The notes under the pieces are model-generated. The model was given only the letters and a program-made list of their open reading frames with translations. It searched no databases and was not told where the DNA came from. Of a DNA stretch of 64,000 nucleotides, positions 29,240 to 52,368 are shown one piece after another. Position 1 is the stretch's first letter; every line of letters starts with the position of its first letter. The DNA is from an uncultured Verrucomicrobiota bacterium. GTDB taxonomy: Bacteria > Verrucomicrobiota > Verrucomicrobiia > Palsa-1439. Made by a program: the position numbers and the translations under genes. The stretch covers positions 14-64,013 of the forward strand of contig CAZMKD010000024.1 in NCBI GenBank assembly GCA_964566575.1. The letters are read 5' to 3'.

Positions 29240-29995
29240 TCAGTGCCACACGTTCAGATACATCGGTCGGACATGCACCTCGCCGCCCGGAAAGTAGAAT
29301 GTCTTCTCGTACGAAAACGTTCGTGAGGCCGGGTCGTATTTCAACACGCGCGGCCGGTCGGTGTAGTTCGGATCGTAGATGAGATAGCCGCCGTCCGTGG
29401 CGGCGTACGCCACCACGGCGTGGTTGATGTCAACGTTGGGAAAATTGTAGAGCCACAAGACCATCGGATGCCCGCGTGCCAGCCACCGGTCGAGCAACTC
29501 GTGGAAATACGCGTGCTCGGCCCGCGTCGGCTCAATCTGCATTACGTATTTACGCGTGTGAAAATACGTTGTCCAACCGGCGCCGAGGTTGGCCCGCAGA
29601 ACCTTGCCGTCTCGCTCACTGAACTCGTGCAAGCCCGCGTAACCGGGGAAGACAATCTTCTCTGCCGGAATCGAATCCCACGCCGCATGCCGTGTGACCT
29701 CGCGCACGCGTCGGGCAAGTTCGTCGGGGCTTACCGGTGACGCGGCCGCATCGAAGCGAGCGTGTTTCCAGAATTGCACCGCGGTCGCCGCCATCACGAA
29801 ACAACGCCGGCTGTAATGGTCACCATCTTGCCGGTCATCGGTCACGCGGCTGCCGTCGCGGTAGCTGAAGACCGTTTCGTTGGCGAATGCGTACGTGTCC
29901 TCCGGGAATCGAAACGGCCGGGTTTCGCCGCGCGGTGGTTGCGTCGGCAACGTCGAACAGCCGGCCAGTAGCAGCAATAGGATTGAGGATCTCAT
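29240..29995 (-). CDS. Hypothetical lipoprotein
   Basis: Lipobox 'LLLAGCS' after the signal peptide; 251 aa. Confidence 0.6.
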   Translation of the reverse strand: MRSSILLLLLAGCSTLPTQPPRGETRPFRFPEDTYAFANETVFSYRDGSRVTDDRQDGDHYSRRCFVMAATAVQFWKHARFDAAASPVSPDELARRVREVTRHAAWDSIPAEKIVFPGYAGLHEFSERDGKVLRANLGAGWTTYFHTRKYVMQIEPTRAEHAYFHELLDRWLARGHPMVLWLYNFPNVDINHAVVAYAATDGGYLIYDPNYTDRPRVLKYDPASRTFSYEKTFYFPGGEVHVRPMYLNVWH

Positions 29996-30635
29996 CGCAG
30001 TTCCATCAACGCCTGGAAATCGGCATCGTGTTCGACGTTTCTAGGATGAAACAGGAATTCATGCAACCCCGATGCCGGCAATTTCGCTATCGCGACGCGT
30101 ACTTCGGCGGCGTTCATCCGAAACGTGCGGTGGACGCCCCACAATGTGTTGCTCGTGCGAAACGGACTGCGCGGCCACCAACCAGCGCGGCGCACCCAAC
30201 CGTCGAACGACGCCGGCAACACATCGAGCATCGCGCGGAAGACGAACGGATGTGTGTGCAGATGATGATGGGAATTGACGAAGGCGCAGCGCAATCCCGT
30301 CGCTTGAAATTGTTCCCATTGCGCCGCGACTTCGTGCCGCATCAACGCGCGCGCCTTGCCAAACAAGCCGATGGCCCAGCCGGCTTTCGCGTACGAATCG
30401 CCCCACGGCCACTCGGCGCACGTGACCGGCCGCGAATGACATACGTGCAAATGCCAACCCACTTGCAGCGCCGGCGTCGCGACGGCGAGCGTCACGGCGT
30501 CGTCCGTGGCCGGCTGTCCCATCATCAGACTTGCGCCGTGCAACGCGCCGTCGCGGTGGGCGCGCACGATGGCGGCGTTGGCCGCGTGGGTGATGCCGAA
30601 ATCGTCGGCGATGAAAAAGACTTCTCGATTCAAGA
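29992..30635 (-). CDS. YdjC/ChbG-family carbohydrate deacetylase (HpnK-like)
   Basis: 'EVFFIADDFGITHAANAAI…' is the YdjC N-terminal motif; probable TTG start near 30635 to avoid overlapping the divergent epimerase gene. Confidence 0.6.
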
Positions 30636-30655
30636 CGGAACGGTATACTGCCGCA

Positions 30656-31681
30656 ATGCTCGCGGGTTCGCAATGCCTCGTTACCGGCGGCACCGGTTTC
30701 ATCGGCCGCTACGTCGTGCGCCGCCTGCTCGCCCACGGCGCAAACGTGCGCGTGTCCTGCCGGTCGCGCACGAAGGCGGAACGACTCTTCGGCAACGCCG
30801 TCGAGACCGGCGATTCCTGCCGGGGCGTTGAGATTGTCTTCCATCTGGCCGGCGTCTACCAGTTTGGCCGACGCGCCACGGCGGAGATGTTCGCCACGAA
30901 CGTCCGGGGCACGGAGCGTCTTCTCGAAGCCGCGTGGGACGCGCGTGTCGAGCGATTCGTCCACATCAGCTCCTCTGGCGTTCTCACCTGCAACGGCGCA
31001 CCGATCAGCGAAAGCAGCTTTCCCCTCTACGTTTCACCACGCGAGTCGTACAGGCACTCGAAGTGGCTCGGCGAACTCGCCGCGTTGGCAGCCGCCAAAC
31101 GCGGCTTGCCGGTAACCATCGGCAGCCCGACAAGTCCCCTCGGCGCGGAAGATGAGACGCCGACGCCGACCGGTCGAATCGTCGCCGACTTCGTGGCCGG
31201 TAGGTTTCCGTTCTCGACGCGAACAGCGTTAAACTTTGTCGACGTGACCGAGCTAGCCGACGGCATCCTGGCGTTGGCCAATCGCGGTCGCACTGGCGAG
31301 CGTTACATCCTCGGCCATCACAATATTTGGCTTACGGATTTCCTCCAAGTCCTCGAACGTTGCTGCGACTTGCCACGCTCGGAGCGTGGCCGGCCCGCGC
31401 CGCGCCGGGAATTACCGTGGCCGGTCATTGCCGCCGCGGCCGGCATTGGTGAAGTGGCCGGGGCGTCACGAGTGTGCTGGGAAACGGCGCGGGGCGCTCG
31501 CAAACGCCAATTCTTCGACCTCCGCAAGGCTACCGACGAACTCGGTTGGCAGGGCCGGACGCCGATTGAAACCAGCGCTCGCGCCGCGGTTGCATGGTTT
31601 CGCCGTCAGCCGGTACGCGAGCCACTGGTGCTCGCCCCAGTCCGAGCAGGGCAAGCCGAGACGAATGTCGCTGCATCCTGA
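30656..31681 (+). CDS. NAD-dependent epimerase/dehydratase (HpnA-like sugar epimerase)
   Basis: Rossmann motif 'LVTGGTGFIGRYVVRRLL', catalytic 'YRHSK'. Confidence 0.75.
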   Translation: MLAGSQCLVTGGTGFIGRYVVRRLLAHGANVRVSCRSRTKAERLFGNAVETGDSCRGVEIVFHLAGVYQFGRRATAEMFATNVRGTERLLEAAWDARVERFVHISSSGVLTCNGAPISESSFPLYVSPRESYRHSKWLGELAALAAAKRGLPVTIGSPTSPLGAEDETPTPTGRIVADFVAGRFPFSTRTALNFVDVTELADGILALANRGRTGERYILGHHNIWLTDFLQVLERCCDLPRSERGRPAPRRELPWPVIAAAAGIGEVAGASRVCWETARGARKRQFFDLRKATDELGWQGRTPIETSARAAVAWFRRQPVREPLVLAPVRAGQAETNVAAS

Positions 31682-32813
31682 GTGGTGGTTGTGCGGTTGG
31701 ACGGTCGCCGCCGCCGCGTGGTGGATCATCGCCATTGTGTTTGTAGGCCGTGTGACCTCACGCGGCGCAGCGCGGGCGCCCGCTGAGATCAGCGCGCCAA
31801 CACTGAAACTTTCCATTTTCAAACCCATCCCATCGATCCACGACGATTCCCTGTTTGCCGCCGTGGAATCATTCGCGAGCCAACTCGACGAGCACAGCGA
31901 ACTGTTGCTCGGCATCGAGGAACAACACGCCACACGTTGGCAATCGTTTCGGCGGGACCGGGTGAAACTGATTTGTTTGCCGCGACCGGCGCAGTTTCTC
32001 AGCCCGAAAGTTTCGTGGTTTCACACGCTGGCCGGACACGCGACCGGAGAACTCTGGCTGTGGAGCGATGCCGACATGGTCTTGCCGGCAGGCGGGTTGG
32101 CTTCGCTCCGTCAAGAATTCGCGTCGAGCGGCTGCGCGCTGCTGACGACGCCGTACGTGGTGCGGCAAGCCAACGGCGCGGCGACACTCGAAGCCTTGTT
32201 TGTGAATGCGGAGTTTTATCCCGGCGTGCTCGCCGCGGCCGGTCGAATGAACTTCGCGATGGGTGCGGGGATGATGTTTCGTGCCGATGATTTCCGCCAG
32301 CGCGTGAAGTGGGAAGCCCTAGGTTGCCGGCTCGCGGACGATAATCTGCTCGGGCAGACGCTCACGCCGGTCCGGGTCAGCGATCTGACGTTGGAGACGT
32401 TGCCGGCGTCCGTGGGATGGGGCGACGCGATTGCGCATTATGCGCGGTGGCACAAGACGGTGCGCTGGTGTCGGCCCGGCGGTTACGCGGCGCAATTGCT
32501 CATCCTGCCGGTATTGGGTTGGGCGGTGATCGGCGCTTGGCCGTTTGCGCTCGCCACAATGCAACTGGAAGTGCTTGCGGCGTGGCTGTTGTGCCGGCAA
32601 GCCGGAATGTGGGAGCGCCCTTCCGGGCGCGATGGCTGCCGGTCGCGCCCGGAAGGGCGCTCCCACAAAATCATTCCGACGGTTCTCGCGCTGGAACTGT
32701 GGAGCATGTTGCGCGCGGTCACGTGGCTGGCGTGTTGGCTGCCGTGGCCGGTCACGTTCCACTCGCAGCGCCGCAAATGGTACAGCTTGTATCGGTCCGA
32801 ACCGATTACTTGA
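31665..32813 (+). CDS. Family-2 glycosyltransferase (HpnI-like / ceramide-glucosyltransferase-like), containing an in-frame palindromic insert
   Basis: N-terminal TM, 'WSDADMV' D-x-D region, C-terminal TM helices; starts at 'MSLHPEWW'; a 58-bp perfect inverted repeat lies inside the ORF (32609-32666). Confidence 0.65.
   Translation: MSLHPEWWLCGWTVAAAAWWIIAIVFVGRVTSRGAARAPAEISAPTLKLSIFKPIPSIHDDSLFAAVESFASQLDEHSELLLGIEEQHATRWQSFRRDRVKLICLPRPAQFLSPKVSWFHTLAGHATGELWLWSDADMVLPAGGLASLRQEFASSGCALLTTPYVVRQANGAATLEALFVNAEFYPGVLAAAGRMNFAMGAGMMFRADDFRQRVKWEALGCRLADDNLLGQTLTPVRVSDLTLETLPASVGWGDAIAHYARWHKTVRWCRPGGYAAQLLILPVLGWAVIGAWPFALATMQLEVLAAWLLCRQAGMWERPSGRDGCRSRPEGRSHKIIPTVLALELWSMLRAVTWLACWLPWPVTFHSQRRKWYSLYRSEPIT
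32609..32666. repeat. Perfect 24-bp inverted repeat with a 10-nt spacer (GTGGGAGCGCCCTTCCGGGCGCGA-N10-TCGCGCCCGGAAGGGCGCTCCCAC) within the GT2 coding sequence
   Basis: The arms are exact reverse complements; they encode an Arg-rich segment 'MWERPSGRDGCRSRPEGRSH'. Confidence 0.8.
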
Positions 32814-33423
32814 TGCCGAAGTCGAAGATCGTGCCGGCCCCGCCGATCGGGCGGAAGAAGCAATACTCGCCGGGGGCGAGGTCTTGTTCGACCGTGATCT
32901 TAAACACGCCGGGCGACACTTTTTCGGAGTTGAATCCACGGACGGCTTTCTTGTCCACGCCCGCCTTGCTGCCGGAGTACCACCCGGCTTTGCCGACGAC
33001 GAGACGGCGCGTCTTGCCTTTGTCTTTGATTTCCATCGCGGACAAGGCGTAGTCGTCGGGCGAAAGATTGGCGTCTTCGCCGAGCCCGCCGCCGACGTTG
33101 CCAAAGTAGAAGTAGAATGTCGGCCGGCGCTCGGTGATCTGCACGGCGGCATTGCCGCCTTCGATCACGGCTTTCTGCTTGGTTTCCTGGCCGTAGCCGC
33201 CAAAGAACGCAAAGCCTTGCTTGGTTTTGCCGTAGGACGTGGTCTCGATCTTGGTCATCTTCTTCGCCCCGCCGGTTTCGGTGTAATGGTAAATGCCAAG
33301 CTCGTGCGGCGCCGCCGGGTCGTTCGGGTCGCCGACGGCTGGTTGCGCTTCTTCCGCGCGTACGACGGCGACGGCCAGCAATGAGGCCAAGCCGAGATTC
33401 AGAATTGTCACAGCAATCTTCAT
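32806..33423 (-). CDS. Secreted hypothetical protein (paralogue A)
   Basis: Signal peptide 'MKIAVTILNLGLASLLAVAVVRA'; C-terminal '…GEYCFFRPIGGAGTIFDFGIK' is shared with paralogue B. Confidence 0.6.
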   Translation of the reverse strand: MKIAVTILNLGLASLLAVAVVRAEEAQPAVGDPNDPAAPHELGIYHYTETGGAKKMTKIETTSYGKTKQGFAFFGGYGQETKQKAVIEGGNAAVQITERRPTFYFYFGNVGGGLGEDANLSPDDYALSAMEIKDKGKTRRLVVGKAGWYSGSKAGVDKKAVRGFNSEKVSPGVFKITVEQDLAPGEYCFFRPIGGAGTIFDFGIK

Positions 33424-33501
33424 GAGTTCCTCCTGTTATTGAATTGTATTTTACAGTCCTGGCAGGTCTTATTCAAATCAAAACATGCGACTGCCGATGG
33501 C

Positions 33502-34299
33502 TCACTGTTTTGCTTTGATTCCAAAATCGAACAAATCAACCTGCCCGTGCTTAAGCGCTTCGCGCGAGGCATCCGCATTGTGGATGAAGCAGTACTCGCC
33601 GCGCGTCAGATCCTGCGTTGGGATGATCTTGAAAATGCCAAGGGCGACCTTGTCGGCGGTTGTCGCTACGAATGCCTTTGGGTCGAGACCACTCTTCGTG
33701 CCGCCAAAGAATTCCTGTTTGCCGACAGCCAAACGTCGATCATTCTTGTCAGCGCGAACCTCAAGCCGGGCGAGAACAAGATCATTTGCGTCCGCATCGG
33801 CGTCAGATGCCGGCGTGTAATAGTAGAAGGTGGGTCGCCCATCGCCCGTTTGCAGTGTCGCTGCTGCGCCGTACAGCGTGGCTCTTGACTTCTTGTTCCA
33901 GCCGCTCGACCTGCCCGCATCCTTTGGCTTGAGCCGCGTCATTTTTGGCTGGCCATCGACCTCTTGGTAAAGCCACAAACCAGTTTCATGTGAGACGAGA
34001 GGGTCGTTCGACACAGCCGCCATCGTTGGCTGCGCCTTCGGGGTTTCGGCTTGTGGGTGGGAAATACTCATCATTGCGCGGATGATGCTATCCGAAACGC
34101 CAGCCGCCTTGAGTTGTTTCAGGCCATCGGTGCTGAGGTCGAATTCCCCTTGAGAGTTCTTGATCTTGTCGAAGATCAAATCCTCGGCAAGCCCAACCTT
34201 TTGGAGTTCGATCACACTGTTGTTGGTGAGTGTTTCCGTGGCAGCGAACACACGGACCGCCAAGGCCAGCCCAAGAATTATGGTAAATGTTCCTCTCAT
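33502..34299 (-). CDS. Secreted hypothetical protein (paralogue B)
   Basis: Starts at 'MRGTFTIILGLALAVRVFA'; C-terminal '…GEYCFIHNADASREALKHGQVDLFDFGIKAKQ' is homologous to paralogue A. Confidence 0.6.
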   Translation of the reverse strand: MRGTFTIILGLALAVRVFAATETLTNNSVIELQKVGLAEDLIFDKIKNSQGEFDLSTDGLKQLKAAGVSDSIIRAMMSISHPQAETPKAQPTMAAVSNDPLVSHETGLWLYQEVDGQPKMTRLKPKDAGRSSGWNKKSRATLYGAAATLQTGDGRPTFYYYTPASDADADANDLVLARLEVRADKNDRRLAVGKQEFFGGTKSGLDPKAFVATTADKVALGIFKIIPTQDLTRGEYCFIHNADASREALKHGQVDLFDFGIKAKQ

Positions 34300-34521: not shown

Positions 34522-35742
34522 ATGACCACCCCACAATCCCAACGCATTGTCGTCACCGGCCTCGGTGCGGTCACGCCGCTCGGGCCGGACTTGTCGACGA
34601 CATGGCGACGGCTCATAGCCGGCAAAGACGGCGCGGCGCCGGTGGAACTATTCGACGTTTCCGGTTGCCGTTGCAAAATCGGCGGCACGGCGCAGCTTCC
34701 TCCGGTACAATTCGACCGTAAACGCGCCAGACGTCTCACCCGCTCCAGCCAGCTCGCATTGACGGCCGCGCAAGAAGCGCTCGATCACGCGGGATTGCTC
34801 AGCGCCGACGGCAAATCCACTATCGCGGAGTTGCCGGTCTCCGCCAGCACCACTGGCGGCGGCATGACTCTCGGCGAACAATTCTTCCGCGCCGTTGCCG
34901 CGCACCAGCGCGACCGCAGGTACTGGCTCGTCTCGCATTACACCGCGCAACAACAATTACTCGATCTTCAAGAGATCCTCGGATTTCGCGGTCCGGTCAC
35001 TATCATCGCCAACGCCTGTGCCAGTGGCGCCAACGCGGTCGGCCACGCGCGCGACCTCATCCGGTCAGGCCGCGCCGAGTGTGTGCTCGCCGGCGGCTAC
35101 GAAGCGCTGACCGAACTGATCTACGTTGGTTTCGATTGTTTGCAGGCGTTGACGACGGACCGGTGCCGGCCGTTCGACACACAGCGCAACGGCCTCATGC
35201 TCGGTGATGCGGGAGCGTTCCTCGTCCTCGAGTCGGAAGGTCATGCGCGACGCCGCGGCGCGAAGATTTTGTGCGAACTGGCCGGCTACGGCCACGGCAC
35301 CGACTTGCATCATCTCACGCAGCCAAACCCGACCGGCCAACCGCTCGTGCAAGCCGCCGCGATGGCGTTCGCCGATGCCGGGATCGAACCCAGCCAGATT
35401 GGTTACCTCAACGCTCACGGCACGGCCACGCTGTTGAACGACGGCAGCGAAGGCGCAGCCTTCTCAACCATTTTCGGCGACGCCATGCCGCGGATCAGTT
35501 CGACGAAAGCGGCCATCGGCCACACGCTCGGCGCCGCCGGTTCGGTGGAAGCGGTGTTTGCGGTGCAAGCGTTGACGACCGGCGAGTTGCCGCCCCAGCT
35601 CAACGTACGCACGCCGGAGCCGTCCATGGCCGGGCATCTGGTCACGCGAGGCGAACAGAGCACCGCGTCCGCCACGATGAGCGTCAACCTCGGTTTCGGC
35701 GGCTCGAATGCCGCTTTGATATTCTCGCGTCATGAATCTTGA
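34522..35742 (+). CDS. Beta-ketoacyl-ACP synthase (FabF/KS-alpha-like)
   Basis: Active-site Cys in 'IIANACASGANAV'; His residues in 'NAHGTAT' and 'IGHTLGAAG'. Confidence 0.85.
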   Translation: MTTPQSQRIVVTGLGAVTPLGPDLSTTWRRLIAGKDGAAPVELFDVSGCRCKIGGTAQLPPVQFDRKRARRLTRSSQLALTAAQEALDHAGLLSADGKSTIAELPVSASTTGGGMTLGEQFFRAVAAHQRDRRYWLVSHYTAQQQLLDLQEILGFRGPVTIIANACASGANAVGHARDLIRSGRAECVLAGGYEALTELIYVGFDCLQALTTDRCRPFDTQRNGLMLGDAGAFLVLESEGHARRRGAKILCELAGYGHGTDLHHLTQPNPTGQPLVQAAAMAFADAGIEPSQIGYLNAHGTATLLNDGSEGAAFSTIFGDAMPRISSTKAAIGHTLGAAGSVEAVFAVQALTTGELPPQLNVRTPEPSMAGHLVTRGEQSTASATMSVNLGFGGSNAALIFSRHES

Positions 35743-36709
35743 ACTGGGAATTGCCGGCATGGGCGCAGTCTCACCGGTGGGAGTCGGCGTCAACGCGTTG
35801 CTGGCGGCGCGCGAACTGGTGCCGGAAGTGATACCGGCCTACGGCTCGGGCGTGTCCTACCGTGTTTTCCGTGTGAACCAGAAACACGAACGACTCACGC
35901 GCTGGCAGAACGAAGCCCGACTGCGGCGCACGAGCGCTATTTCGGTATTCATGGTTGAAGCCGCAAAACAGGCGCTCGGTGAAACGACGCCGGCATCACT
36001 TGGTATCGTCGCGGCGTTGGGAACTGGCGCGGTGATTCCAACGAGGCGGTTCTACGAGGGCGTCATCAGGAGCGGGCCGCGCTTTGCGAGCCCGAACATT
36101 TTCCCCGAGACGGTTTTCAATTCGCCGGTCAGCCACGTCGCCTCGGTGCTCGGCTCGGCCGGACCGTGTTATTCAGTCATCGGCGATGAAGCGGCGTGGG
36201 TCAGCGCGATCAGCGTGGCGGCGACGTGGCTGGCGAATGGGTTGGTCGAAAATGTGTTGGTCATCGGCGCGGAGGAGTTCGATCCAATATTGCTTGATGC
36301 GTATGCCGCCGTGCGTTGGCTGCGGAACGGGGGACGGTATGTGCCGGCGGAAGGCGCCGTGGCCTTACTGCTGCGGCGAGCGCGATCGGGAGACAAGCGT
36401 GTGGCGGGCATTATCGAGGGTTTCCCGTATCGCAACCGGAAAGACGCCCGCCGGGCGGCGCGGGAATGCGTCGCCGCCGCGGGGACTTGCCGTCTGCTTT
36501 ACCGGTCGGCGCAGAACAATTGGTTCGCTGATATCGAAAAGGAAATCAACGGTCCGAGTGCTCCGGCATTGCCGTATTGCGGCGAGGCGTTTGCGGCGTC
36601 GGCGGCGTGGCACACGGTGCGGGCTGTGTCACAAGCGAGCGATCACATCCTGCAGCCGGTCTGGGGGTTGACGCAGCAATGTTCCGCTTTGCTTTTGGCA
36701 GCAGGCTAA
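35732..36709 (+). CDS. KS-like chain-length-factor-type protein (no active-site Cys)
   Basis: KS fold without the catalytic Cys (…YSVIGDEAAWVSAI…); 11-nt overlap with the upstream KS, as in aryl-polyene KS/CLF pairs. Confidence 0.7.
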   Translation: MNLELGIAGMGAVSPVGVGVNALLAARELVPEVIPAYGSGVSYRVFRVNQKHERLTRWQNEARLRRTSAISVFMVEAAKQALGETTPASLGIVAALGTGAVIPTRRFYEGVIRSGPRFASPNIFPETVFNSPVSHVASVLGSAGPCYSVIGDEAAWVSAISVAATWLANGLVENVLVIGAEEFDPILLDAYAAVRWLRNGGRYVPAEGAVALLLRRARSGDKRVAGIIEGFPYRNRKDARRAARECVAAAGTCRLLYRSAQNNWFADIEKEINGPSAPALPYCGEAFAASAAWHTVRAVSQASDHILQPVWGLTQQCSALLLAAG

Positions 36710-36715
36710 TTATAT

Positions 36716-36985
36716 ATGGTGGCGCGTATGGCACAGGTTTCCTTGGATGAACTCAAGCGGCTGCTCGTCGAGAATTGCGTGTTGAAGGTTGATCTCAACG
36801 AGATCTCCGCGGATACGCCGTTGTTCGGGCCGAACAGCGTGGGGTTGGACTCGTTAGACGCGTTGCAAATGACGGTCGCCATCGAACAGAATTACGGGCG
36901 CGCGATTCCCGATTCGCAGGTCGCCCGGCAAGCGTTGCGCACACTCGGCACGTTGCGCGATTGGTTGGCGCAGCCCGGCGCTTAG
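36716..36985 (+). CDS. Acyl carrier protein
   Basis: Phosphopantetheine attachment motif 'GLDSLDAL'; 89 aa. Confidence 0.75.
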   Translation: MVARMAQVSLDELKRLLVENCVLKVDLNEISADTPLFGPNSVGLDSLDALQMTVAIEQNYGRAIPDSQVARQALRTLGTLRDWLAQPGA

Positions 36986-43875: not shown

Positions 43876-44606
43876 CTGTGCAACCGCACCCGACACTGGA
43901 ATCTCACTACCGGTCGCTCGAGGCCAAGCCCCAGTTTCTTCGCGGCATCTTCGACCGCACCGCGCCGCACTATGAGGCGATCAACCGGTGGGGATTCTTC
44001 GGCAGCGGCGACTGGTATCGCCGGCAAGCCCTGCTGCGCGCCGGCCTCACACCGGGAATGCGCGTGCTCGATGTCGCAGCCGGCACGGGGCCAACGGCGC
44101 GCGCGGCGGCCGGCATCGTCGGCGATGCCGGCCACATTGTGTGCCTCGACGCGAGTCTCGGCATGTTGCGGGTTTCGCAGCAAGCACTCGGCGCGCGTCA
44201 CGTCCAAGGCGTGGCGGACCGGCTGCCGGTGCGCAGCGGCAGTTTCGATTTCCTCACGATGGGCTTCGCGCTCCGGCATGTTGAGAATCTGGAGAACGCG
44301 TTCCGCGAATACCGCCGCGCGCTCCGGCCGGGCGGCAAGGCGTTGATCCTCGACACGATCAAACCGCGCAGCCGCGCCGCGCAGGTTTTCGCCAAAGTCT
44401 ATTTCCACGACGTGCTGCCGTGGTGTGCCCGGCTGATCACCGGCAACGCCGAGACGAGCACACTTGTGAAATACTACTGGGATTCGATGAGCCAGATGTT
44501 GCCGCCTGAGCGCGTGTGCGACGCGATGCGCGCCGCTGGATTTCAGGACGTGGCCGGGCGCGTGTTGATGGGCATCTTCAGCGAGTTCGAAGGCGTGAAC
44601 CGCTGA
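43872..44606 (+). CDS. Class I SAM-dependent methyltransferase (UbiE/COQ5-like)
   Basis: SAM motif 'VLDVAAGTGPTA'; TTG/GTG start overlapping the upstream stop. Confidence 0.8.
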   Translation: MTVQPHPTLESHYRSLEAKPQFLRGIFDRTAPHYEAINRWGFFGSGDWYRRQALLRAGLTPGMRVLDVAAGTGPTARAAAGIVGDAGHIVCLDASLGMLRVSQQALGARHVQGVADRLPVRSGSFDFLTMGFALRHVENLENAFREYRRALRPGGKALILDTIKPRSRAAQVFAKVYFHDVLPWCARLITGNAETSTLVKYYWDSMSQMLPPERVCDAMRAAGFQDVAGRVLMGIFSEFEGVNR

Positions 44607-46141
44607 CGTGCCGCCAGTTGTTTCTCAACCCTCCCGCGCAGGTAACCCCGGTAATCGCGGAACTGCTCGATCAGTATGCTGACCACGAAAAACTCGCGCA
44701 TCAGTCTCGGGTCGTGCCGGCGCACCGCGCCGACATGCCGCCAGAAACGCCAGCGCGTGGCCGGTCGCACCCCTAGCCGCCAGCACACCTTGAGAAACGT
44801 CCGCAGCGCTTCCCCGCGTTGACGCAACATTACTGGCCGCCGTCGCACACATTCGACGCGTGGCGGCGGCAACATCTGGAAATACCGGACTGTCCGGTCG
44901 AGAAACCGCGCCGGCTCGTACAAGTCCCACACCAGCTCGATGTATTCCCGGGCAATCTCCTCGACCGGCCGGGTCGGCACGAAGTTCATTACCGTGTCCG
45001 GGTTCAGTCGCGCGTCTTCGCCGAGCAACCGGCCCTCGCGTTCGAGCCGCTCCCACAACGGCGTGCGCGGCAACGCCTGCAACAACGACACCAGCGCGGT
45101 CGGGATCGCCGCGCGCTCGATCGTCTCCGCAATCCGACGTCCCGCGCCCGGCGCCTCGCCGTCGAATCCGAGAATGAACGAACCCATCACCCGGATGCCG
45201 GCCCGCGTGATTTTCCCGACTGCTTCCTCGACTGGCGTGAGCGTGTTCTGGAGTTTGTGCGCCGACTTCAGGCTGGCGACGTCCGGCGTCTCGATGCCAA
45301 CGAACACGCTGGTGAAATTGCACTCGGCCATCAAGTCGAGCATCTCCGGCTCGTGCGCGAGATTGAGCGACGCCTCGGTCTGAAATGCAAACGGATGACC
45401 GCGCTCGCGCTGCCACTCCTTCAACGCGCGCAACAACGGCAGTGTCTGGGCCCGGTTGGCGGTGAAGTTGTCGTCCACAATGAACACGTCGCGATCCCAG
45501 CCGAGGTCGTAGAGCCGCGACAACTCTGCCAACACCTGCGCCGGTACCTTCGCGCGCGCCCGGCGACCGTAGATCGCAGTCACGTCACAAAACTCGCATT
45601 GAAACGGGCAGCCGCGCGAAAACTGCACCGACATCGTCTCGTAATCGCCGAACTCGAGCAGATCGAACCGCGGCACCGGCGAAGTCGTCATGTTCGCGAA
45701 CTGACCGGGCACGCTGAACCGGCCACTCGTCTGACCGGCCCGCAACGCGTCGACAAACACCGGGATCGTGAGTTCCCCCTCGCCGAGCACGAGATAATCC
45801 GCGCCGGCCGCCGCGACATCCTCCGGCAACGTTGTCACGAATGGCCCGCCCACCGCGACCTTCTTGCCGCGCGTCTTCGCTTCGCGTATCACCGCGAAGA
45901 AATCCTCGCGCTGCGCGGTCATCGCCGACACCAGCACTAGCTCGGCCCAATCCCAATCCGACTCGGTGACCGACCGCGCGTTGCGATCCACAAGCCGGTA
46001 TTCCCAGTCCTGCGGCAGCAACGCCGCAACGGTCGTCAGGTTGAGCGGTGGCAACAGCACTTTGCGGCCGAGAATTTCGAGCACGCGCTGAAACGACCAC
46101 ATCGCCGGCGGGAATTCGGGCAGCACAAGCAGCGCGCGCAT
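44543..46141 (-). CDS. B12-binding radical SAM protein
   Basis: N-terminal B12-binding region, 'SRGCPFQCEFCDV' CxxxCxxC cluster; starts at 'MRALLVLPEF'. Confidence 0.8.
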   Translation of the reverse strand: MRALLVLPEFPPAMWSFQRVLEILGRKVLLPPLNLTTVAALLPQDWEYRLVDRNARSVTESDWDWAELVLVSAMTAQREDFFAVIREAKTRGKKVAVGGPFVTTLPEDVAAAGADYLVLGEGELTIPVFVDALRAGQTSGRFSVPGQFANMTTSPVPRFDLLEFGDYETMSVQFSRGCPFQCEFCDVTAIYGRRARAKVPAQVLAELSRLYDLGWDRDVFIVDDNFTANRAQTLPLLRALKEWQRERGHPFAFQTEASLNLAHEPEMLDLMAECNFTSVFVGIETPDVASLKSAHKLQNTLTPVEEAVGKITRAGIRVMGSFILGFDGEAPGAGRRIAETIERAAIPTALVSLLQALPRTPLWERLEREGRLLGEDARLNPDTVMNFVPTRPVEEIAREYIELVWDLYEPARFLDRTVRYFQMLPPPRVECVRRRPVMLRQRGEALRTFLKVCWRLGVRPATRWRFWRHVGAVRRHDPRLMREFFVVSILIEQFRDYRGYLRGRVEKQLAARQRFTPSNSLKMPINTRPATS

Positions 46142-46292: not shown

Positions 46293-46916
46293 TTGAACGA
46301 CGTACTGAAGTCAGCAAGCGAGAACATGCGACACGAAGAACATGACCCTGCTCGACCGGACCTTCAGCCGGTTGCTATAGCTTTTTGCTCGAATCACCCT
46401 CCGGTATCACACTCGCGACGGTATGTAGCTAACTGTCCGTCGCCCGCAGTCCAACATCGAGTGCTGTTGATAGCCGCACTGGTGGTTATCTGTCTCGGCG
46501 ATGTTACGGAAGCGGCAGCCCCAAGGACCGAGAAGGAAAAACTGAAGGCGCTAAATGCAGCCCGGTTTTTTAAGTACACTGGCGAACAACGCACTTGGCC
46601 CACGGTCGATACGGCGGCGATTCGTATCCTGCCAAGTACCGACCGTGTTTCAATTTACCAAAGTCTGCCGGCGAAGCCCTATGAAATCATCGGGGTGATC
46701 GAAGTCGCTCGCCGAGACTCATCCGTTAGACGTGCTCTTGAGGCGGCGCAAGCTGGCGGTGCGGACGCCATTGTTGTCTGTCCACACGAGGCATTCACCG
46801 CCGCCGGGATTAAGCCGCCGCTCGAACTGGTGATCAAAGGCAAGGATCCCAGAGCTGTCGTGTCGTTGGTCGGCCTCTTGATACGCTGGAAGTCAGATGT
46901 AGCCCCCGTGCCGTGA
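46293..46916 (+). CDS. Hypothetical protein
   Basis: ORF with an internal hydrophobic segment 'VLLIAALVVICLG'; start uncertain. Confidence 0.35.
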   Translation: MNDVLKSASENMRHEEHDPARPDLQPVAIAFCSNHPPVSHSRRYVANCPSPAVQHRVLLIAALVVICLGDVTEAAAPRTEKEKLKALNAARFFKYTGEQRTWPTVDTAAIRILPSTDRVSIYQSLPAKPYEIIGVIEVARRDSSVRRALEAAQAGGADAIVVCPHEAFTAAGIKPPLELVIKGKDPRAVVSLVGLLIRWKSDVAPVP

Positions 46917-47003: not shown

Positions 47004-47477
47004 ATGAAACCAGAGAAACACCTGCTGCTAGGCGTGGTCATTGGCCTGTTGGTCCTCGGCGCAATCGGCTGCGCGTCGGTTCCCAAGACTTCAGCCGCGC
47101 TCGATGCTGAGGCGAAGAAGTTTGTCCCCGAACCGGGTAAAGGGAGTATTTACGTCAGGCGCGGCGGTGGCGTGGGGGCCGCGGTTCTGATGCCAGTGTT
47201 ACTCGATGGTCGGATCGTTGGAAACTTGGCGCCGGACACATTTCTACTGTTGATTGTGCCGCCCGGCGGACACGTTGTCGGCACATCGCTGGCTTATGCA
47301 GAAGCGGCCGGGCAACAGAAAATCAATATCGAAGCTGGGAATAACTATTTTTTCAAGGTCAGCATCCGGATGGGTATGTGGGCCGGGAAAGCACACCTTG
47401 AACAATTGACCGAGGAAGAGGGGCGCGAGAAGGTTCTCAAGTCGAAACGCGCCGAATCTATGGTTTACGAGTTCTAA
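47004..47477 (+). CDS. Small lipoprotein (DUF2846-like)
   Basis: Lipobox 'LGAIGCAS'; ~157 aa. Confidence 0.55.
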   Translation: MKPEKHLLLGVVIGLLVLGAIGCASVPKTSAALDAEAKKFVPEPGKGSIYVRRGGGVGAAVLMPVLLDGRIVGNLAPDTFLLLIVPPGGHVVGTSLAYAEAAGQQKINIEAGNNYFFKVSIRMGMWAGKAHLEQLTEEEGREKVLKSKRAESMVYEF

Positions 47478-47552: not shown

Positions 47553-48932
47553 ATGCCGAGCCGCGTCCTGCTCATCAACAGCAACACCTGCGACCAGCCC
47601 TACCCGGTCTTTCCGCTCGGGCTTGCGCACGTGGACACTGCGCTCCGCAAGGCCGGTCACACCACGCGGTTTTATGATGGCCCGGTCGAAACCGACTCGC
47701 TGGAGAACATCATCACGGCGTTCGCGCCGGACTTCGTCGGCATCTCCTGCCGCAACGTGGACGACATCCAGATGACCCGACAGGAAACCTATTTTGACCT
47801 GCCGTCCCGGTTCACCCGTCAAGTCCGGGCAGCCACGCGCGCGCCGGTCATTCTTGGCGGCAGCGCGTTCTCGTTGTATCCGCAGCCGATGCTCGAACTG
47901 ACCGGCGCGGATTACGGCGTGCAAGGCGAAGGCGAGATTGCCGCGGTCCGGTTGATTGCCGCGCTCGAACGCAGCGCGAGTTTCCGAAACGTGCCGGGGT
48001 TGGTGTACCGTGAGGATGACCGGATCATCTGCAACGCCCGGCAACCCATGTCACCGGCGGAACTCGCACCGGCCGAGCGGCGCTCGGAGTTGGCGGAGTA
48101 CTACGCGCACCGCAGCTCGATGTTGAACATCCAAACCCAACGCGGTTGCCCGTTGACGTGTTGTTACTGTACCTATCCGCTCATCGAAGGCCGGGCCCCG
48201 CGCCGCCGCGATCCCGATGAGGTGGCGGAGGAACTCGCCACCATCGCCGGGCAGGGCGTGAAGTACGTGTTCATCACCGACTCCGTGTTCAACACCACCA
48301 ACGAACACGCCGCCGCGGTGTGCGAGGCGATCCTGCGACGGGGCGTGAAGATGCAGTGGTGCTGTTTCCTGCGCCCGAGCGATCTCGACCGGGACCTGAT
48401 CGGCCTCATGGCACGCGCCGGCATGACGCACGTGGAATTCGGCTCGGACAGTTTCTGCGACCCGGTGCTCAAAGAGTATGGCAAGTCGTTCACGTTCGAA
48501 GACATCCTCGAAGCCGGTACAAACGCCCACGCCGCGAAGATTCATCAGGCGCACTTCCTTATCTGCGGCGGCCCCGGCGAGACTTGCGAGACGCTGGAGA
48601 AGACGTTCGAAAACTCGCGGCGGTTGCCGGGTGCGGTGATCTTCGGTTTGGCCGGCATGCGCATCTATCCGGGCACGCCACTGCACGAGCGCGCGCTGCG
48701 GGAAGGCGCGATTAGGCCGGCTACCGGCCTGCTCCGGCCCGTCTATTACCTCTCGTCGGCATTGGATAAGGAAACGGTGTTGGCAATGCTGGAGGATTTC
48801 AAGCAACGCGCGCCCAACTGGATCGTCGGCGAGCTGCCGGCGTCGTACAACGACTTCGCCGCCCGGCTGCGACAGCGCGGCGTGGTCGGGCCGCTCTGGG
48901 AATATTTTCAGGCGCTACAACGCATGACGTAG
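47553..48932 (+). CDS. B12-binding radical SAM protein (HpnJ-like class)
   Basis: N-terminal B12-binding Rossmann region (LINSNTCDQPYPVFPLGLAHV), 'QRGCPLTCCYCTYP' cluster. Confidence 0.8.
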   Translation: MPSRVLLINSNTCDQPYPVFPLGLAHVDTALRKAGHTTRFYDGPVETDSLENIITAFAPDFVGISCRNVDDIQMTRQETYFDLPSRFTRQVRAATRAPVILGGSAFSLYPQPMLELTGADYGVQGEGEIAAVRLIAALERSASFRNVPGLVYREDDRIICNARQPMSPAELAPAERRSELAEYYAHRSSMLNIQTQRGCPLTCCYCTYPLIEGRAPRRRDPDEVAEELATIAGQGVKYVFITDSVFNTTNEHAAAVCEAILRRGVKMQWCCFLRPSDLDRDLIGLMARAGMTHVEFGSDSFCDPVLKEYGKSFTFEDILEAGTNAHAAKIHQAHFLICGGPGETCETLEKTFENSRRLPGAVIFGLAGMRIYPGTPLHERALREGAIRPATGLLRPVYYLSSALDKETVLAMLEDFKQRAPNWIVGELPASYNDFAARLRQRGVVGPLWEYFQALQRMT

Positions 48933-50069
48933 CGCGGCCGTGTCGAGCTTGCCCCGATCCGTTCGGGGCAACACGCGGGCGAGAATGTATCTCTTCGGCA
49001 GTTGCCAAACCGGCAACTTCCCACGCAACTCCGATTCGACTTCCTCGCATTCGGTTTCTACGGCAGCAGCGAGGTAATCGTTGCCGCGCGCGTCCTTCAA
49101 CACAGTCACCCACGCATCGGTCACGCCGACCACCGAACGCAGCGCGCGCTCGACTTCGGCCGGGGAAACTTTCTTTCCGCCAATATTGGCGACGACACCG
49201 ACGCGGCCGATGAGTTTGAGTTCGCCGTACCGGTTCCATTCCCCGCAATCCGTGAGGACTTGCCGGCCGACGACGACGCGGCCATCCCGGCGAATTTTCA
49301 CGGAAACGTTTTTTAAGGGTTTGCCGACGCCGCGGCCGGTGAGAGTGGCGTTGCCGGTGCGGTCGTAGCAGATGCCGCCGGTTTCGCTCGCGCCGTAGAA
49401 GTTGTGAATTTTCAGCCGGTAGCGCTCGTAAAATTGCCGGGCCACTTCCGGCGACAACGGCGCACCGGCTGAAATCACCAGCCGCAACGAGGCCGGCTTC
49501 TTTGCATCGAGCGCCGCGAGCGCGCGGAGGACTGCCGGCACAGTTGGGAACACGGTTACATTGTGTTGCCGGATCAAATCGAGAATCTCACGCGGCGTGA
49601 TCGTCTGCGCGCAGAGGACCGGCGTGCCTTGCAGGATCAGCGGCATGACGAGGTTGCCGAGTCCGTAGGAATGTCCGAACGGGATGAGCGCGAGGTTGCG
49701 GTCGGACGGACGGATGTCCATCGTCGCGCAGATGTTGCGGCCGTCATTGATGAGATGGGCGGGGCTGCAATAGACCGGCTTGAATCCGCCGGTGGTGCCG
49801 GAGGTGAGTTTGACGCAGCAGGCGCGCGCCGCGACGCGCGGGATCACCGGTGCCGAAGGATCGAGCGGTAACGCGGTTGCGCCGAGGCGTTGCGCGGCGA
49901 GGAACCGGATGAACCATCGTGCGCTGTTCGGTTCGCTGATCGGAATCACGCGGCCGGTCAAGTGCAGACGGTTGGCTTCGGCGGTAATGTCGGCGAACGT
50001 CCACACGCGCTCGGCGTCGATGACGGCCAGCTTGCCGGCGGGGTTGGCTCCCCAGAGTTTCCAGATCAT
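48915..50069 (-). CDS. AMP-dependent synthetase/ligase (short acyl-ACP/CoA ligase type)
   Basis: 'LTSGTTGGFKP' AMP-binding motif and 'YGASETGG'; starts at 'MIWKLWGANPAG'. Confidence 0.75.
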   Translation of the reverse strand: MIWKLWGANPAGKLAVIDAERVWTFADITAEANRLHLTGRVIPISEPNSARWFIRFLAAQRLGATALPLDPSAPVIPRVAARACCVKLTSGTTGGFKPVYCSPAHLINDGRNICATMDIRPSDRNLALIPFGHSYGLGNLVMPLILQGTPVLCAQTITPREILDLIRQHNVTVFPTVPAVLRALAALDAKKPASLRLVISAGAPLSPEVARQFYERYRLKIHNFYGASETGGICYDRTGNATLTGRGVGKPLKNVSVKIRRDGRVVVGRQVLTDCGEWNRYGELKLIGRVGVVANIGGKKVSPAEVERALRSVVGVTDAWVTVLKDARGNDYLAAAVETECEEVESELRGKLPVWQLPKRYILARVLPRTDRGKLDTAALRHAL

Positions 50070-51361
50070 ACGTCGGGGCGTAGTTCGTATTTGTAGCCGA
50101 GTTTGCCGAAATAGACGCGAAGTATGGGAGCAGTGATGACGGTGCTGAGAATGGCCATCAGCACCAACATCGTAAAGACGTTCGGCGGAATCACGCCGAG
50201 ATCGAGGCCAACGTTGATCACGACGAGTTCCATAAGCGCACGCGTGTTCATCATGATGCCGAGACAGCCGGCATCGGCCCAGGTCATGCCACAAAACCGC
50301 GCCGCCACGGAACAGCCGACAAATTTGCCGACGGTGGCCGCGCCGATGATCAGCGCGCACCAACCCCACAACGCGAGTGAGTCGAGGCCGTGCACGTTGG
50401 TGCGCAGGCCGGTAAAGGTGAAGAAAATTGGCAGGAAAAACACGCTGACAAAATGCGAGACGGTCTTCTTCCACGCCGCGACGAACTCCGCATGGTCGTG
50501 CAACATCATGCCGGCGACGAACCCGCCGAATATGACGAACACACCGAGCCGGAACGTAATCAGTCCTGAGATGAAGATGACCATGATCATGATCGCCATC
50601 AAGTCGTGGGGTAAGTGTTCATTGACCGGCTTCATGGAGTCGATGACGCGTTTCAGAAGCGGTCGTACGAGGAAATGGCACACCACGAGATAGACGGCGA
50701 GCAACGCGATCTGGATCGCAAAATTTCCCGGCGAAAACTGCGCCGTCGTCAACGCGCTGACAACCGCCAGCAGCGTCCAGCCGGTTAGGTCGTCCATCGC
50801 GGCGGCGGTGATCGCGATCGCTCCGAGCCGCGTGCGTTGAATGCCCAGTTCCATCATGATTCGGCCCAGAATGGGGATGGCGGTAATCGAGAGCGCGACC
50901 GCGAGAAAGAGCCGGTAGGCGAGGGCGTTGATGCCTGGCGCCAATGTCTGATGAGACCAAGTTCCGACGAGCCAGCCCAGCGCAAACGGCAACGCGATGC
51001 CAGCCGCCGATACGCTAAATACCGCGGCGCGATTCTGTTTCTCCTTCAAATGGCTGAAGTCGAACTCCAGCCCGATCTGGAACATGAGTAGGCACAGCCC
51101 GATTTGGCTAAGGATGATCATCGGCACGGGCGAGATCGAGTGGAATACAAACTCGAATTGATTCGGGAACAAACGGCCGAACAAGGATGGCCCGAGAATC
51201 AGTCCGCCGATGATTTCGCCGACGACGCGCGGTTGGCCGAGCCAACGCGCTACTTTGCCAGACAGCCGGGCGGCGGCGAGAATGGCGAGCAGTTCGATGA
51301 GGGTAAACGAAACCAACCTCTCGGTTTCGTGGACGGAGGTGGCAGCGGCCAGTAGGTTCAT
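50066..51361 (-). CDS. Cation:proton antiporter (CPA2 / Kef-type)
   Basis: 12-13 TM helices; N-terminal 'LIELLAILAAARLSGKVARWLGQPRVVGEIIGGLILGP' is the CPA2 signature. Confidence 0.8.
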   Translation of the reverse strand: MNLLAAATSVHETERLVSFTLIELLAILAAARLSGKVARWLGQPRVVGEIIGGLILGPSLFGRLFPNQFEFVFHSISPVPMIILSQIGLCLLMFQIGLEFDFSHLKEKQNRAAVFSVSAAGIALPFALGWLVGTWSHQTLAPGINALAYRLFLAVALSITAIPILGRIMMELGIQRTRLGAIAITAAAMDDLTGWTLLAVVSALTTAQFSPGNFAIQIALLAVYLVVCHFLVRPLLKRVIDSMKPVNEHLPHDLMAIMIMVIFISGLITFRLGVFVIFGGFVAGMMLHDHAEFVAAWKKTVSHFVSVFFLPIFFTFTGLRTNVHGLDSLALWGWCALIIGAATVGKFVGCSVAARFCGMTWADAGCLGIMMNTRALMELVVINVGLDLGVIPPNVFTMLVLMAILSTVITAPILRVYFGKLGYKYELRPDV

Positions 51362-52368
51362 CGTGCCAGAGCGTTGCCGGTGCGTGAGCGCAGGTATTCG
51401 GAGACGCTGACTGAGCTCGGCTTGCAGCCGGCACGGTCGATGGCGGAGAGGACGCGGTCTTCATCCATGATGAAGCGGTCGCGCCGGTAAATTGGGTACT
51501 GCGACTGATATTCGGACGGCGAGAGGTTGATCGTAGTGAGGTTGGCGCCGGCATTGAGTGCGCGCGCGTAGCCGTCGTAGCCAACCATCTTCAGCGCGCT
51601 CACCGCCGGGATGATCCAGTGCGGCGAGGCCAAGCGCATGAGGGCGATGCAATTCAGCGTAAGCTCCAAATCGCCATTGGGCTGGGTCGTAAACGGCGTG
51701 TCTTCGCCGGAGATGAACGGGCTGACGCTGTAGCCGGCCAGGGGCAGCCCCGCCAGAAGTTCGAGCGAATTGAGAATCATCTCGTCGGTCTGGCGGGGCA
51801 GGCCGACGATGATACCGGAGGAGACGTTCCAACCGGTCGAAGCCAGATACCGGATTGCGTCGAGGCGCTGTTCGAGCGTGCCAGGGGCGAGAATGTCGCG
51901 ATAATGGGCGGCGTCGCCCGTTTCGATTTTCAGCACACAGTAATCGGCGCCGGCGTCGCGCAATTCGTCAAACTCGCGCGGGGAAAGTGTGCCGAGACAG
52001 ACCGTGATGCCGAGCTTGGTGTGCCGGCGGAGTTGTCGGAAAAGCGGCAGGACGATTTCGCGCACGGCGACCGGGTCTTCGCCTGCCTGGATGTCGATAT
52101 CGGTAATCGCGGCTGGGCGGTGGTGGACGAGCAGTTCAAGGATCTGATCGGTTGTGAGTCGGTAGCGGTCGAGTTGCCGGTTGTCGCGGCGCATGGCGCA
52201 GTAGTTGCAGTTCTGCCGGCAATAACTGGAGATTTCAATGACGCCGCGCACAAATATCTTGCGACCAAACGTTGTGTCCCGTGTCTCACCGGCGATGTGA
52301 TGAAGGGACTGCTGCGCGGCGTCTGAACAATGAAGTTGCTCGCGCCCAATTGACCAAAACTCACCCAT
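51358..52368 (-). CDS. Radical SAM protein (BioB/HydE/ThiH-like)
   Basis: 'CRQNCNYC' cluster; TIM-barrel-type composition; 4-nt overlap with the downstream antiporter gene. Confidence 0.75.
   Translation of the reverse strand: MGEFWSIGREQLHCSDAAQQSLHHIAGETRDTTFGRKIFVRGVIEISSYCRQNCNYCAMRRDNRQLDRYRLTTDQILELLVHHRPAAITDIDIQAGEDPVAVREIVLPLFRQLRRHTKLGITVCLGTLSPREFDELRDAGADYCVLKIETGDAAHYRDILAPGTLEQRLDAIRYLASTGWNVSSGIIVGLPRQTDEMILNSLELLAGLPLAGYSVSPFISGEDTPFTTQPNGDLELTLNCIALMRLASPHWIIPAVSALKMVGYDGYARALNAGANLTTINLSPSEYQSQYPIYRRDRFIMDEDRVLSAIDRAGCKPSSVSVSEYLRSRTGNALAR

Follow-up and report, generated by a model that had tools for sequence, protein, structure and literature searches.

A 64,000-nucleotide stretch of contig CAZMKD010000024.1 (assembly GCA_964566575.1), which derives from an uncultured Verrucomicrobiota bacterium of the lineage Palsa-1439 and is termed here the window, harbors a dense cluster of genes for the building, tailoring and export of an acyl chain. 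The original prediction, made from the DNA letters, had described this region (29992-52368) as an aryl-polyene/flexirubin-like lipid cluster decorated with two flavin halogenases, two B12-binding radical-SAM (rSAM; SAM, S-adenosylmethionine) enzymes and a sugar module resembling HpnI, HpnK and HpnA. Every gene named in it is present at its coordinates and matches the expected families in Pfam and NCBIfam profile scans, with a G+C fraction at third codon positions (GC3, by which the reality of the genes was judged) of 0.7-0.8 in a window of about 60% G+C. Moreover, an independent gene caller applied to the same contig (L002) gave identical open reading frames (ORFs). Gene content and coordinates were thereby borne out, and the cluster is read here, with moderate confidence, as a dedicated type-II fatty acid synthase (FAS)/polyketide synthase-like pathway for a specialised envelope glycolipid in a Verrucomicrobia lineage; it resembles the aryl-polyene and ladderane-like clusters and is a member of neither.

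The chain-building genes are located in a plus-strand operon in which adjacent genes overlap by 4-55 nt or sit 6 nt apart, so that the tight coupling proposed earlier also holds. The operon opens with a beta-ketoacyl-ACP synthase (KS; ACP, acyl carrier protein) of a divergent FabF-like lineage (34522-35742; PF00109 and PF02801), followed by a truncated, catalytically dead KS partner resembling a chain length factor (CLF; 35732-36709, alternative start 35759, weak FabF-like matches), a dedicated ACP with the DSL serine (36716-36985; PF00550), flavin-dependent halogenase 1 (Hal1, 36992-38284), an MMPL/RND-type lipid exporter fused to an LpxL/PatA-type (lipid-A-type) acyltransferase (38281-41382; PF03176 and PF03279), a LolA-like periplasmic lipid carrier (41328-41984; PF03548), a FabZ/ApeI-like 3-hydroxyacyl-ACP dehydratase (DH, 41981-42367; PF07977 and PF22818, His and Glu present), the divergent halogenase 2 with a C-terminal extension (Hal2, 42364-43875), and a UbiE/MenG-family SAM methyltransferase (43872-44606; PF01209). 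To the left lie a YdjC-family, HpnK-like sugar deacetylase (29992-30702, minus strand; PF04794, 1e-32), an extended short-chain dehydrogenase/reductase (SDR) of HpnA-like type (30656-31681, plus; PF01370 and PF07993, with TGxxGxxG and YxxxK), and a GT21-family lipid glycosyltransferase (GT) resembling HpnI and ceramide glucosyltransferase (31665-32813, plus; PF13506, 1e-25). To the right are a B12-binding rSAM protein with DUF4070 (44543-46141, minus; PF02310, PF04055 and PF13282), a second B12-binding rSAM protein of the family TIGR04072, rSAM_ladder_B12 (47553-48932, plus), and a minus-strand operon with 4-nt overlaps, which comprises a HydE/PylB/BioB-like rSAM enzyme (51358-52368), a CPA2-type Na+/H+ exchanger (50066-51361; PF00999, 1.5e-51) and a short AMP-ligase (48915-50069; PF00501). 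All motifs inspected by eye are intact, namely the Cys-His-His of the KS, the DSL of the ACP, the His/Glu of the DH, three CX3CX2C motifs including that of the HydE-like enzyme, the TGxxGxxG and YxxxK of the SDR, and the HX4E of the acyltransferase. As had been stated before, no ketoreductase (KR), thioesterase (TE) or ammonia-lyase was found by Pfam among all sizeable ORFs of the 64 kb, and neither was a chorismatase; in particular, the window holds no adh_short KR, and one DH and one ACP only. Rfam and tRNA scans of the window returned no match, and no cobalamin or SAM riboswitch was detected.

Searches with the two B12-rSAMs, the dead KS and the acyltransferase fusion brought up related loci, which were compared gene by gene by tblastn. 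This gene set is repeated in L001, L007, L009, L012, L013, L016, L019, L020 and, in part, L008, which are assigned to Verrucomicrobiota and are metagenome-derived throughout. Since nine independent contigs share the gene set, a chance arrangement is dismissed and a real, co-conserved lipid/secondary-lipid cluster of uncultured Verrucomicrobia is confirmed, in support of the single cluster that had been proposed. The KS, dead KS, ACP (51-90% identical), acyltransferase and DH are common to all related loci, while most of them carry the AMP-ligase (L001, L007, L008, L012, L016 and L020), the GT21/SDR/YdjC/lipoprotein block and the HydE-like rSAM (L001, L009, L012 and L016; 44-84% identity). Within this block, the YdjC gene is conserved in L001, L009, L013, L019 and L020, and the SDR and GT21 genes in six loci each, the sugar trio being a genuine recurrent partner, as the original prediction had it. 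Hal1, MMPL and LolA occur together in the window, L001, L007, L012, L013 and L016; L019 possesses Hal1 and a LolA-like gene without MMPL, and L020 the LolA-like gene only. Hal2 is found in the window, L007, L012, L013 and L016 (71-81% identity), and the CPA2 antiporter in the window, L007, L012 and L016, the contig of L013 ending before the antiporter position. The MMPL and acyltransferase are separate genes in L007, and the acyltransferase stands without MMPL in L008, L009, L019 and L020, of which L008 and L009 represent minimal versions of the cluster. The UbiE-like methyltransferase was not found by tblastn in the other Verrucomicrobial loci examined. A genome-contig search with the MMPL-acyltransferase protein returned one locus only, and a metagenome-contig search with a four-sequence alignment one 1.9-kb fragment only.

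The KS of the window shares 36.6% identity with E. coli FabF, 31.9% with ApeR and 30.9% with ApeO, and the whole clade shows 33-37% to E. coli FabF versus 27-33% to ApeO or the Skermanella KS. In a small neighbor-joining tree of limited sampling, the Verrucomicrobial KSs form their own clade (58-82% mutual identity) on the FabF/ApeR side, apart from ApeO and the xanthomonadin-type KS. A role in housekeeping FAS II was rejected, as the KS reaches 332 bits with the fabF equivalog TIGR03150 and thus stays below the cutoff of 494, its partner is a dead KS, and the operon is a dedicated one rather than a fab operon. The dead KS, with about 320-340 aa, is some 90 residues shorter than FabF, and both its active-site Cys and its second His are replaced by Glu. 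Of 115 homologues, 96 have Glu and 12 have Asp at the Cys position, while 97 have Glu and 12 have Asp at the second His (His340). Counted at E ≤ 1e-10 in a set of 1.84 billion representatives, this family amounts to about 500 clusters of 50% identity, KS-dead-KS fusions included, and its profile matches, in the PDB, FabFs and the anammox FabFmut chain 9s5h_C only; no CLF emerged from that search, and BLAST gave no match to ApeC. In L019 (4787-7069, minus) and L020 (6241-8502, minus) the KS and the dead KS are fused into one protein of 753-760 aa, which supports the notion that the two work as one unit; fusions of 743-820 aa also exist among the library representatives. The best reference match of the ACP is ApeE (35% identity). 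The DH passes the ApeI-like model PF22818 with 29.5 bits against a cutoff of 28.5 and is 27.6% identical to ApeI, its best solved relatives being FabZs.

Both halogenases were assigned through PDB matches and motifs. Hal1 matches best 8zop, CndH, ChlB4, Mpy16, Bmp2, PltA and CmlS, with E values of 1e-41 to 1e-48 (about 1e-47 to CndH and 8zop), and these solved halogenases score far above geranylgeranyl reductases and monooxygenases. It contains GGGPGG, a FIPKNGAEF motif whose Lys aligns to the catalytic Lys of CndH, WFWFIP and FIDPIFSSG. Hal2 is more divergent, with CndH (E 7e-19), PltA, 8zop and CmlS as its best matches, and bears GGSLAG, LVKQGMRFWF with its Lys aligned to that of CndH, WAWLIP and FLDPLYSPG. 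By these hallmarks (GxGxxG, WxWxIP, the Lys and FxDPxxSxG), both are predicted to be flavin-dependent halogenases; the fear voiced with the original prediction, that they might be generic monooxygenases dependent on flavin adenine dinucleotide, was not borne out, the Lys, WxWxIP and FxDPxxSxG being present in both. CndH, PltA, Bmp2 and Mpy16 act on carrier-protein-tethered aryl or pyrrolyl substrates. Hal1 appears to be of this type, and halogenation of an ACP-bound intermediate would fit, because its closest relatives use carrier-tethered substrates. The best annotated plasmid-borne homologue of Hal1 resides in an unstudied xanthomonadin-type cluster on plasmid pTT6-1 of Skermanella sp. TT6, where one gene is 36% identical to Hal1 and another 41% identical to the methyltransferase. 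Xanthomonadin clusters are known to include halogenase genes, and between none and two bromines (0-2) are borne by the pigments that they make (PMC3691225); in xanthomonadin-type clusters the corresponding enzymes tailor the aryl head group while the AMP-ligase loads 3-hydroxybenzoate (PMC3949708, PMC3691225). A literature search returned nothing on a halogenase and rSAM in aryl-polyene clusters, nor on xanthomonadin with a halogenase and a glycosyltransferase.

The AMP-ligase, 25% identical to ApeH and 28% to the ligase of the Skermanella cluster, probably loads a starter acid onto the ACP. The CPA2 exchanger gene is joined by translational coupling to its neighbors on either side, those for the HydE-like rSAM and the AMP-ligase, and is 71-85% identical in L007, L012 and L016, the same loci having Hal2. 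A Na+/H+ antiporter is also part of the unrelated Azoarcus arcuflavin cluster, and the exchanger may be linked to the supply of halide or ions. The best NCBIfam matches of four export and sugar proteins are to hopanoid families, and they lie far below the curated cutoffs: the YdjC protein scores 132 bits with HpnK (cutoff 233), the SDR 220 bits with HpnA (cutoff 368), the GT21 protein 85 bits with HpnI (cutoff 310) and the MMPL part 108 bits with an HpnN-like model (cutoff 752), and HpnJ scores are 61-81 bits (cutoff 578). The SDR also has weaker matches to SdmB, thioester-reductase and OleD models, and is either a sugar epimerase/dehydratase or a keto/thioester reductase, as judged from its family. 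The acyltransferase domain, in which AHLGLFE represents HX4E, matches phosphatidylinositol mannoside (PIM) acyltransferase with 64 bits, and the LolA-like protein reaches 64 bits with LolA2_flexi (NF053544) against a cutoff of 125. Adjoining the YdjC gene, a lipoprotein gene (29240-29995, minus) encodes the lipobox LLAGC and has no match in the Pfam copy used; DUF8321/DUF8322 is the precomputed Pfam label of its counterparts in related loci. Homologues of 42-76% identity adjoin YdjC in L001, L007, L009, L013, L019 and L020, and Cys65 (YxRRCFV), His192 (INHAVV) and Asp208/Asn210 (YDPNY) are invariant over seven loci. The Cys-His-Asp set looks like a catalytic triad, and the protein may act in the pathway as an acyltransferase or hydrolase in the periplasm; its AlphaFold model, built without an alignment, has a pLDDT of 35. 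Given its 4-nt overlap with YdjC, next to which it is also found at six other loci, the left border of the cluster would move to 29240.

Two points had been missed by the original prediction. The rSAM protein at 47553-48932 passes TIGR04072 over its full length with 422 bits against a cutoff of 360, as the sole above-cutoff equivalog in the cluster, and clusters of this type have been reported as ladderane-like biosynthetic gene clusters (BGCs). The protein carries PF02310 and PF04055 with the motif CPLTCCYC; among characterised proteins, the methyltransferases BzaD and TsrM stand nearest to it, and its closest solved structures are TsrM and AprD4. The family itself is uncharacterised, anammox members having resisted heterologous expression (PMC10139942), and a literature search for TIGR04072 gave no match. 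These methyltransferase relatives would be in line with a role of the protein in C-methylation.

The DUF4070 rSAM adjoins the other B12-rSAM in L013, L016, L019 and L020 (58-77% identity). The pair occupies the same place in L013 and L016 as in the window, flanked by Hal2 and the AMP-ligase. The KS operons of L019 and L020 begin with the TIGR04072-type gene, beside which the DUF4070 gene lies divergently, and in L020 the TIGR04072-type gene lies 9 nt upstream of the fused KS-dead-KS gene. As both B12-rSAMs are absent from L001, L007 and L012, and the TIGR04072 gene is stand-alone in L003 and L015, they were considered as unrelated neighbors, a view overturned by the pair within the clusters of L013, L016, L019 and L020; their membership in the cluster, as claimed before, is thus upheld by four further loci. 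In the small KS tree, L012 and L007, which lack the pair, are nested among loci with it, which suggests that the pair is ancestral and was later lost or moved. The HydE-like rSAM reaches 210 bits with HydE (cutoff 255) and 142 bits with PylB, and no hydrogenase genes are present in the window. It could serve in starter supply, since it belongs to the ligase operon in four loci, or in sugar modification, since it stands beside GT21 in L001 and L009.

A pathway may be outlined on this basis, for which we infer the starter, chain length, unsaturation, halogen, acceptor lipid and individual rSAM roles from gene families and context. The AMP-ligase would adenylate a carboxylic-acid starter and load it onto the dedicated ACP; a hydroxy-aryl acid is the most likely starter, favored because of the halogenase type and the xanthomonadin-like tailoring genes. 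The active KS with its dead Glu/Glu partner would extend the chain with malonyl units, keto-reduction would be accomplished by a housekeeping FabG in trans or by the cluster SDR, and the FabZ-like DH would then dehydrate the product. Subsequently, the two flavin halogenases may add chlorine or bromine to the ACP-bound chain, which the UbiE-like methyltransferase and the B12-rSAM pair would modify further, most likely by C-methylations. The MMPL-fused acyltransferase is proposed to move the chain to a hexosamine-bearing lipid furnished by GT21, the YdjC deacetylase and the SDR, an anchor suggested because aryl-polyene lipids (APELs) are esterified to a GalNAc-phosphate-glycerolipid of the outer membrane (bioRxiv 10.1101/2020.12.19.423268). 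The MMPL protein and the LolA-like carrier would finally bring the product to the outer membrane. The product is most likely a halogenated, methylated acyl chain on a sugar-lipid; the aryl starter and the polyene chain of the earlier proposal are conjectural.

Several observations weigh against this assignment. No gene forming an aromatic starter, that is, neither an XanB2-type chorismatase nor an ammonia-lyase, is present in the 64 kb by Pfam. Since a KR, a second DH and a thioesterase are missing from the window, the genes do not allow a polyene, or any other particular chain, to be claimed. For the KS and the DH, the nearer relatives are FabF and FabZ, not the corresponding Ape proteins. 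The Hpn-like, HydE-like and LolA2-like matches all remain under curated cutoffs. Halogenation is optional in the cluster family, because L008, L009 and L020 carry the core without halogenases. The TIGR04072 gene stands alone in L003 and L015, and in a Thermoanaerobaculia metagenome-assembled genome (MAG; L005 8500-11425, L006 903-3828) a TIGR04072-type gene paired with another B12-rSAM has no fatty-acid or polyketide genes nearby; the DUF4070 family is very large, with 52-55% identical proteins in cyanobacteria. As the former occurs outside a FAS context and the latter family is huge, both B12-rSAMs may have a wider role than the cluster. Furthermore, all related loci are metagenomic and none is linked to chemistry.

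Among known systems, the overall logic of AMP-ligase priming, KS with dead KS, ACP, DH, acyltransferase, GT, deacetylase, MMPL and LolA is like that of aryl-polyene and xanthomonadin clusters, as first supposed. The halogenase and methyltransferase, by sequence, seem closest to those of xanthomonadin/arcuflavin-type clusters, and the chain-building core parallels anammox cluster I. The xanthomonadin/arcuflavin clusters of Xanthomonas, Azoarcus sp. BH72 (arcA-V) and Skermanella pTT6-1 share with the window a KS beside a KS-like protein that has the N-terminal part only, ACP, DH, AMP-ligase, flavin halogenase, SAM methyltransferase, GT, sugar deacetylase, acyltransferases, MMPL, LolA-like carrier and Na+/H+ antiporter (PMC3949708). 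In contrast, the KS of the window is only 29-33% identical to theirs and belongs to another branch, a FabG-type KR, the XanB2 chorismatase and a second DH are absent, the deacetylase is of YdjC rather than polysaccharide-deacetylase type, the glycosyltransferase is GT21 rather than GT2, the acyltransferase is fused to MMPL, and a second halogenase, the HydE-like rSAM and two B12-rSAMs are extra. With the ape cluster (ApeA-R) of E. coli CFT073 and Xenorhabdus, the window shares the logic of a ligase-primed ACP, KS/CLF, DH, acyltransferase, GT, MMPL and LolA. The reference comparison, made with the CFT073 cluster and E. coli fabF, revealed weak homology to ApeE (35%), ApeI (28%), ApeM (30% over 175 aa) and ApeH (25%). 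The family-level set of MMPL, LolA-like protein, LPLAT, glycosyltransferase and AMP-ligase is complete in Pfam terms, and direct similarity to Ape proteins within that set is confined to ApeM and ApeH. FabF is a nearer relative of the KS than either ApeO or ApeR; no similarity to ApeC, ApeD, ApeL, ApeJ or ApeB was detectable, and the dead KS, acyltransferase, LolA, GT and methyltransferase found no match among their Ape counterparts. ApeR, ApeQ (KR), ApeP, ApeK (TE), ApeG, ApeN and a second ACP are missing.

The claim that the operon carries the core of the aryl-polyene family is therefore not supported, given a KS nearer FabF, no detectable similarity to ApeC, only one KS, one ACP and one DH, and the lack of a KR. 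The core as defined in the literature (bioRxiv 10.1101/2020.12.19.423268) comprises the ApeI and ApeP dehydratases, the ApeQ KR and two ACPs, and neither this set nor an ApeO/ApeR-type KS with an ApeC-type chain length factor is what the window encodes. It is accordingly unlikely that the cluster is a bona fide aryl-polyene, flexirubin or xanthomonadin member that makes a halogenated aryl polyene ester with extra decorations, as the original prediction held, even though the functional parts list equals that of the ape and arcuflavin clusters (PMC3949708), the ApeI-like model is barely passed, the ACP is nearest to ApeE, Hal1 and the methyltransferase are nearest to xanthomonadin-type cluster genes, and arylpolyene BGCs are often reported in Verrucomicrobia. 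Besides the KS being nearer to FabF than to the Skermanella KS, the dead KS matches neither ApeC nor any solved CLF, there is no TE, and LolA2_flexi stays under its cutoff. Far less probable still is a hopanoid side-chain pathway, in which Hpn-like proteins would make and move a bacteriohopanepolyol-glucosamine that the cluster acylates. The shape of the HpnI/HpnK/HpnJ/HpnA/HpnN set is reproduced, with a lipid GlcNAc-transferase-like GT, a YdjC deacetylase, an rSAM accompanying both in the manner of HpnJ, an SDR and an RND/MMPL pump, and hopanoid families are the top NCBIfam matches of four proteins. However, those four scores lie far below their cutoffs, the accompanying rSAM belongs to another, HydE-like family, and no squalene-hopene cyclase (shc), HpnH or HpnG occurs in the window or any related locus; on the grounds of the low Hpn scores and the absent hopanoid core genes, the pathway was rejected.

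An alternative of a different nature regards the cluster as the Verrucomicrobial counterpart of the ladderane-like FAS clusters of anammox bacteria and Desulfotalea, with a non-aromatic chain that is methyl-branched, cyclised or polyunsaturated, and with halogenases and export as later additions. Anammox cluster I (kuste3603-3608) contains a FabF2/FabFmut heterodimer, which behaves like a KS with its CLF, together with an ACP, FabZ, a flavoprotein and a B12-rSAM (bioRxiv 10.64898/2026.05.19.726425; PMC10139942), and the window equals it, as well as the ladderane-like clusters of Desulfotalea, in its KS with dead partner, ACP, FabZ-like DH, flavoprotein and B12-rSAM (PMC2649909; PMC9902471). 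Rattray et al. listed Planctomycete FabF paralogues (Kuenenia, Rhodopirellula) with the same Cys→Asp/Glu and His→Glu replacements, and pointed out that the loci of Kuenenia and Desulfotalea also hold genes for a ligase, a glycosyltransferase, a deacetylase and an rSAM. In addition, the TIGR04072 cutoff is passed, the KS operons of L019 and L020 start with the rSAM, the second-best solved match of the dead-KS family is the anammox FabFmut chain 9s5h_C, and ladderane(-like) BGCs have been called in non-anammox phyla including Verrucomicrobiota MAGs, their role being unexplained (PMC9902471); the window cluster is of this class, which genome miners have already met and left unexplained. Nevertheless, this counterpart reading is also judged improbable. 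The match of the dead KS to FabFmut is weak, at 28-38 bits, and no better than that to ordinary FabF; FabFmut is full-length with Val/Asn/Glu, in contrast with the truncated Glu/Glu partner of the window. The flavoproteins of the window are halogenases rather than phytoene-dehydrogenase-like, and flavin halogenases need an electron-rich substrate, a demand that points to an aryl, pyrrolyl or enol group. The window also holds an AMP-ligase for priming and tailoring genes of xanthomonadin-like type. It differs from cluster I in having export, glyco and ligase modules, and five related loci have no rSAM within 10 kb. Ladderane production by the window cluster is not expected.

A bolder version can be entertained tentatively, in which the cluster is a non-anammox sister of ladderane cluster I joined to aryl-polyene-style anchoring and export, the TIGR04072 and DUF4070 rSAMs would carry out C-C or C-methyl chemistry on the ACP-bound chain of the KS and dead KS, and an acyl-hexosamine lipid of the outer membrane, halogenated and rSAM-modified and of a new class, would result. 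If true, it would provide tractable relatives for learning what the ladderane-associated rSAM does. The cluster is distinguished by its mix of xanthomonadin-like tailoring and export, a KS/dead-KS pair that derives from FabF and forms a lineage of its own, and a ladderane-associated B12-rSAM family (NCBI, antiSMASH). Identification of its product would give a phylum that has been little studied a new halogenated envelope lipid, and would provide a comparative handle on TIGR04072 function. For genome mining, the cluster calls for caution, as it fits neither the arylpolyene nor the ladderane label.

Four further small genes lie among those described. A 205-aa protein (32806-33423, minus; GC3 0.79, no Pfam match, function not assigned) and a 265-aa secreted/lipoprotein-like protein (33502-34299, minus, divergent from the KS operon; no Pfam or NCBIfam match) are tandem paralogues, both related to one gene of about 298 aa upstream of the KS in L007, L012, L013 and L019, which marks a local tandem duplication; homologues of the 265-aa protein in that position are 36-41% identical. 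A small protein without family match or assigned function (46293-46916, plus, start maybe 46425) has a 44% identical homologue directly after the DUF4070 rSAM in L019. The DUF2846 lipoprotein (47004-47477, plus; PF11008, 38 bits) was not found by tblastn in any related locus, and its membership in the cluster is doubtful.

The window flanks consist of housekeeping genes, including those for GAPDH (15487-16623), TIM (25157-25963) and PGK (27990-29249), all on the minus strand and separated by an Opp-type peptide ABC transporter and a 411-aa ORF of unassigned function, together with NicO and SPFH proteins. PGK abuts the lipoprotein gene of the cluster, with a possible 10-nt overlap. Among the housekeeping genes, an MmeI-like type IIL restriction-modification enzyme (13075-15396, minus) possesses MmeI N-terminal, helicase-spacer and methyltransferase domains. 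A DDE transposase (DUF772/DDE_Tnp_1; 62712-63872, minus) near the right end and a DUF3631 protein (813-2420, plus) near the left end are signs of mobile DNA at the contig edges, well outside the cluster. Finally, a large secreted-looking protein with GH16, malectin and fibronectin-III domains, unrelated to the cluster, is encoded at 59989-62256 (plus).

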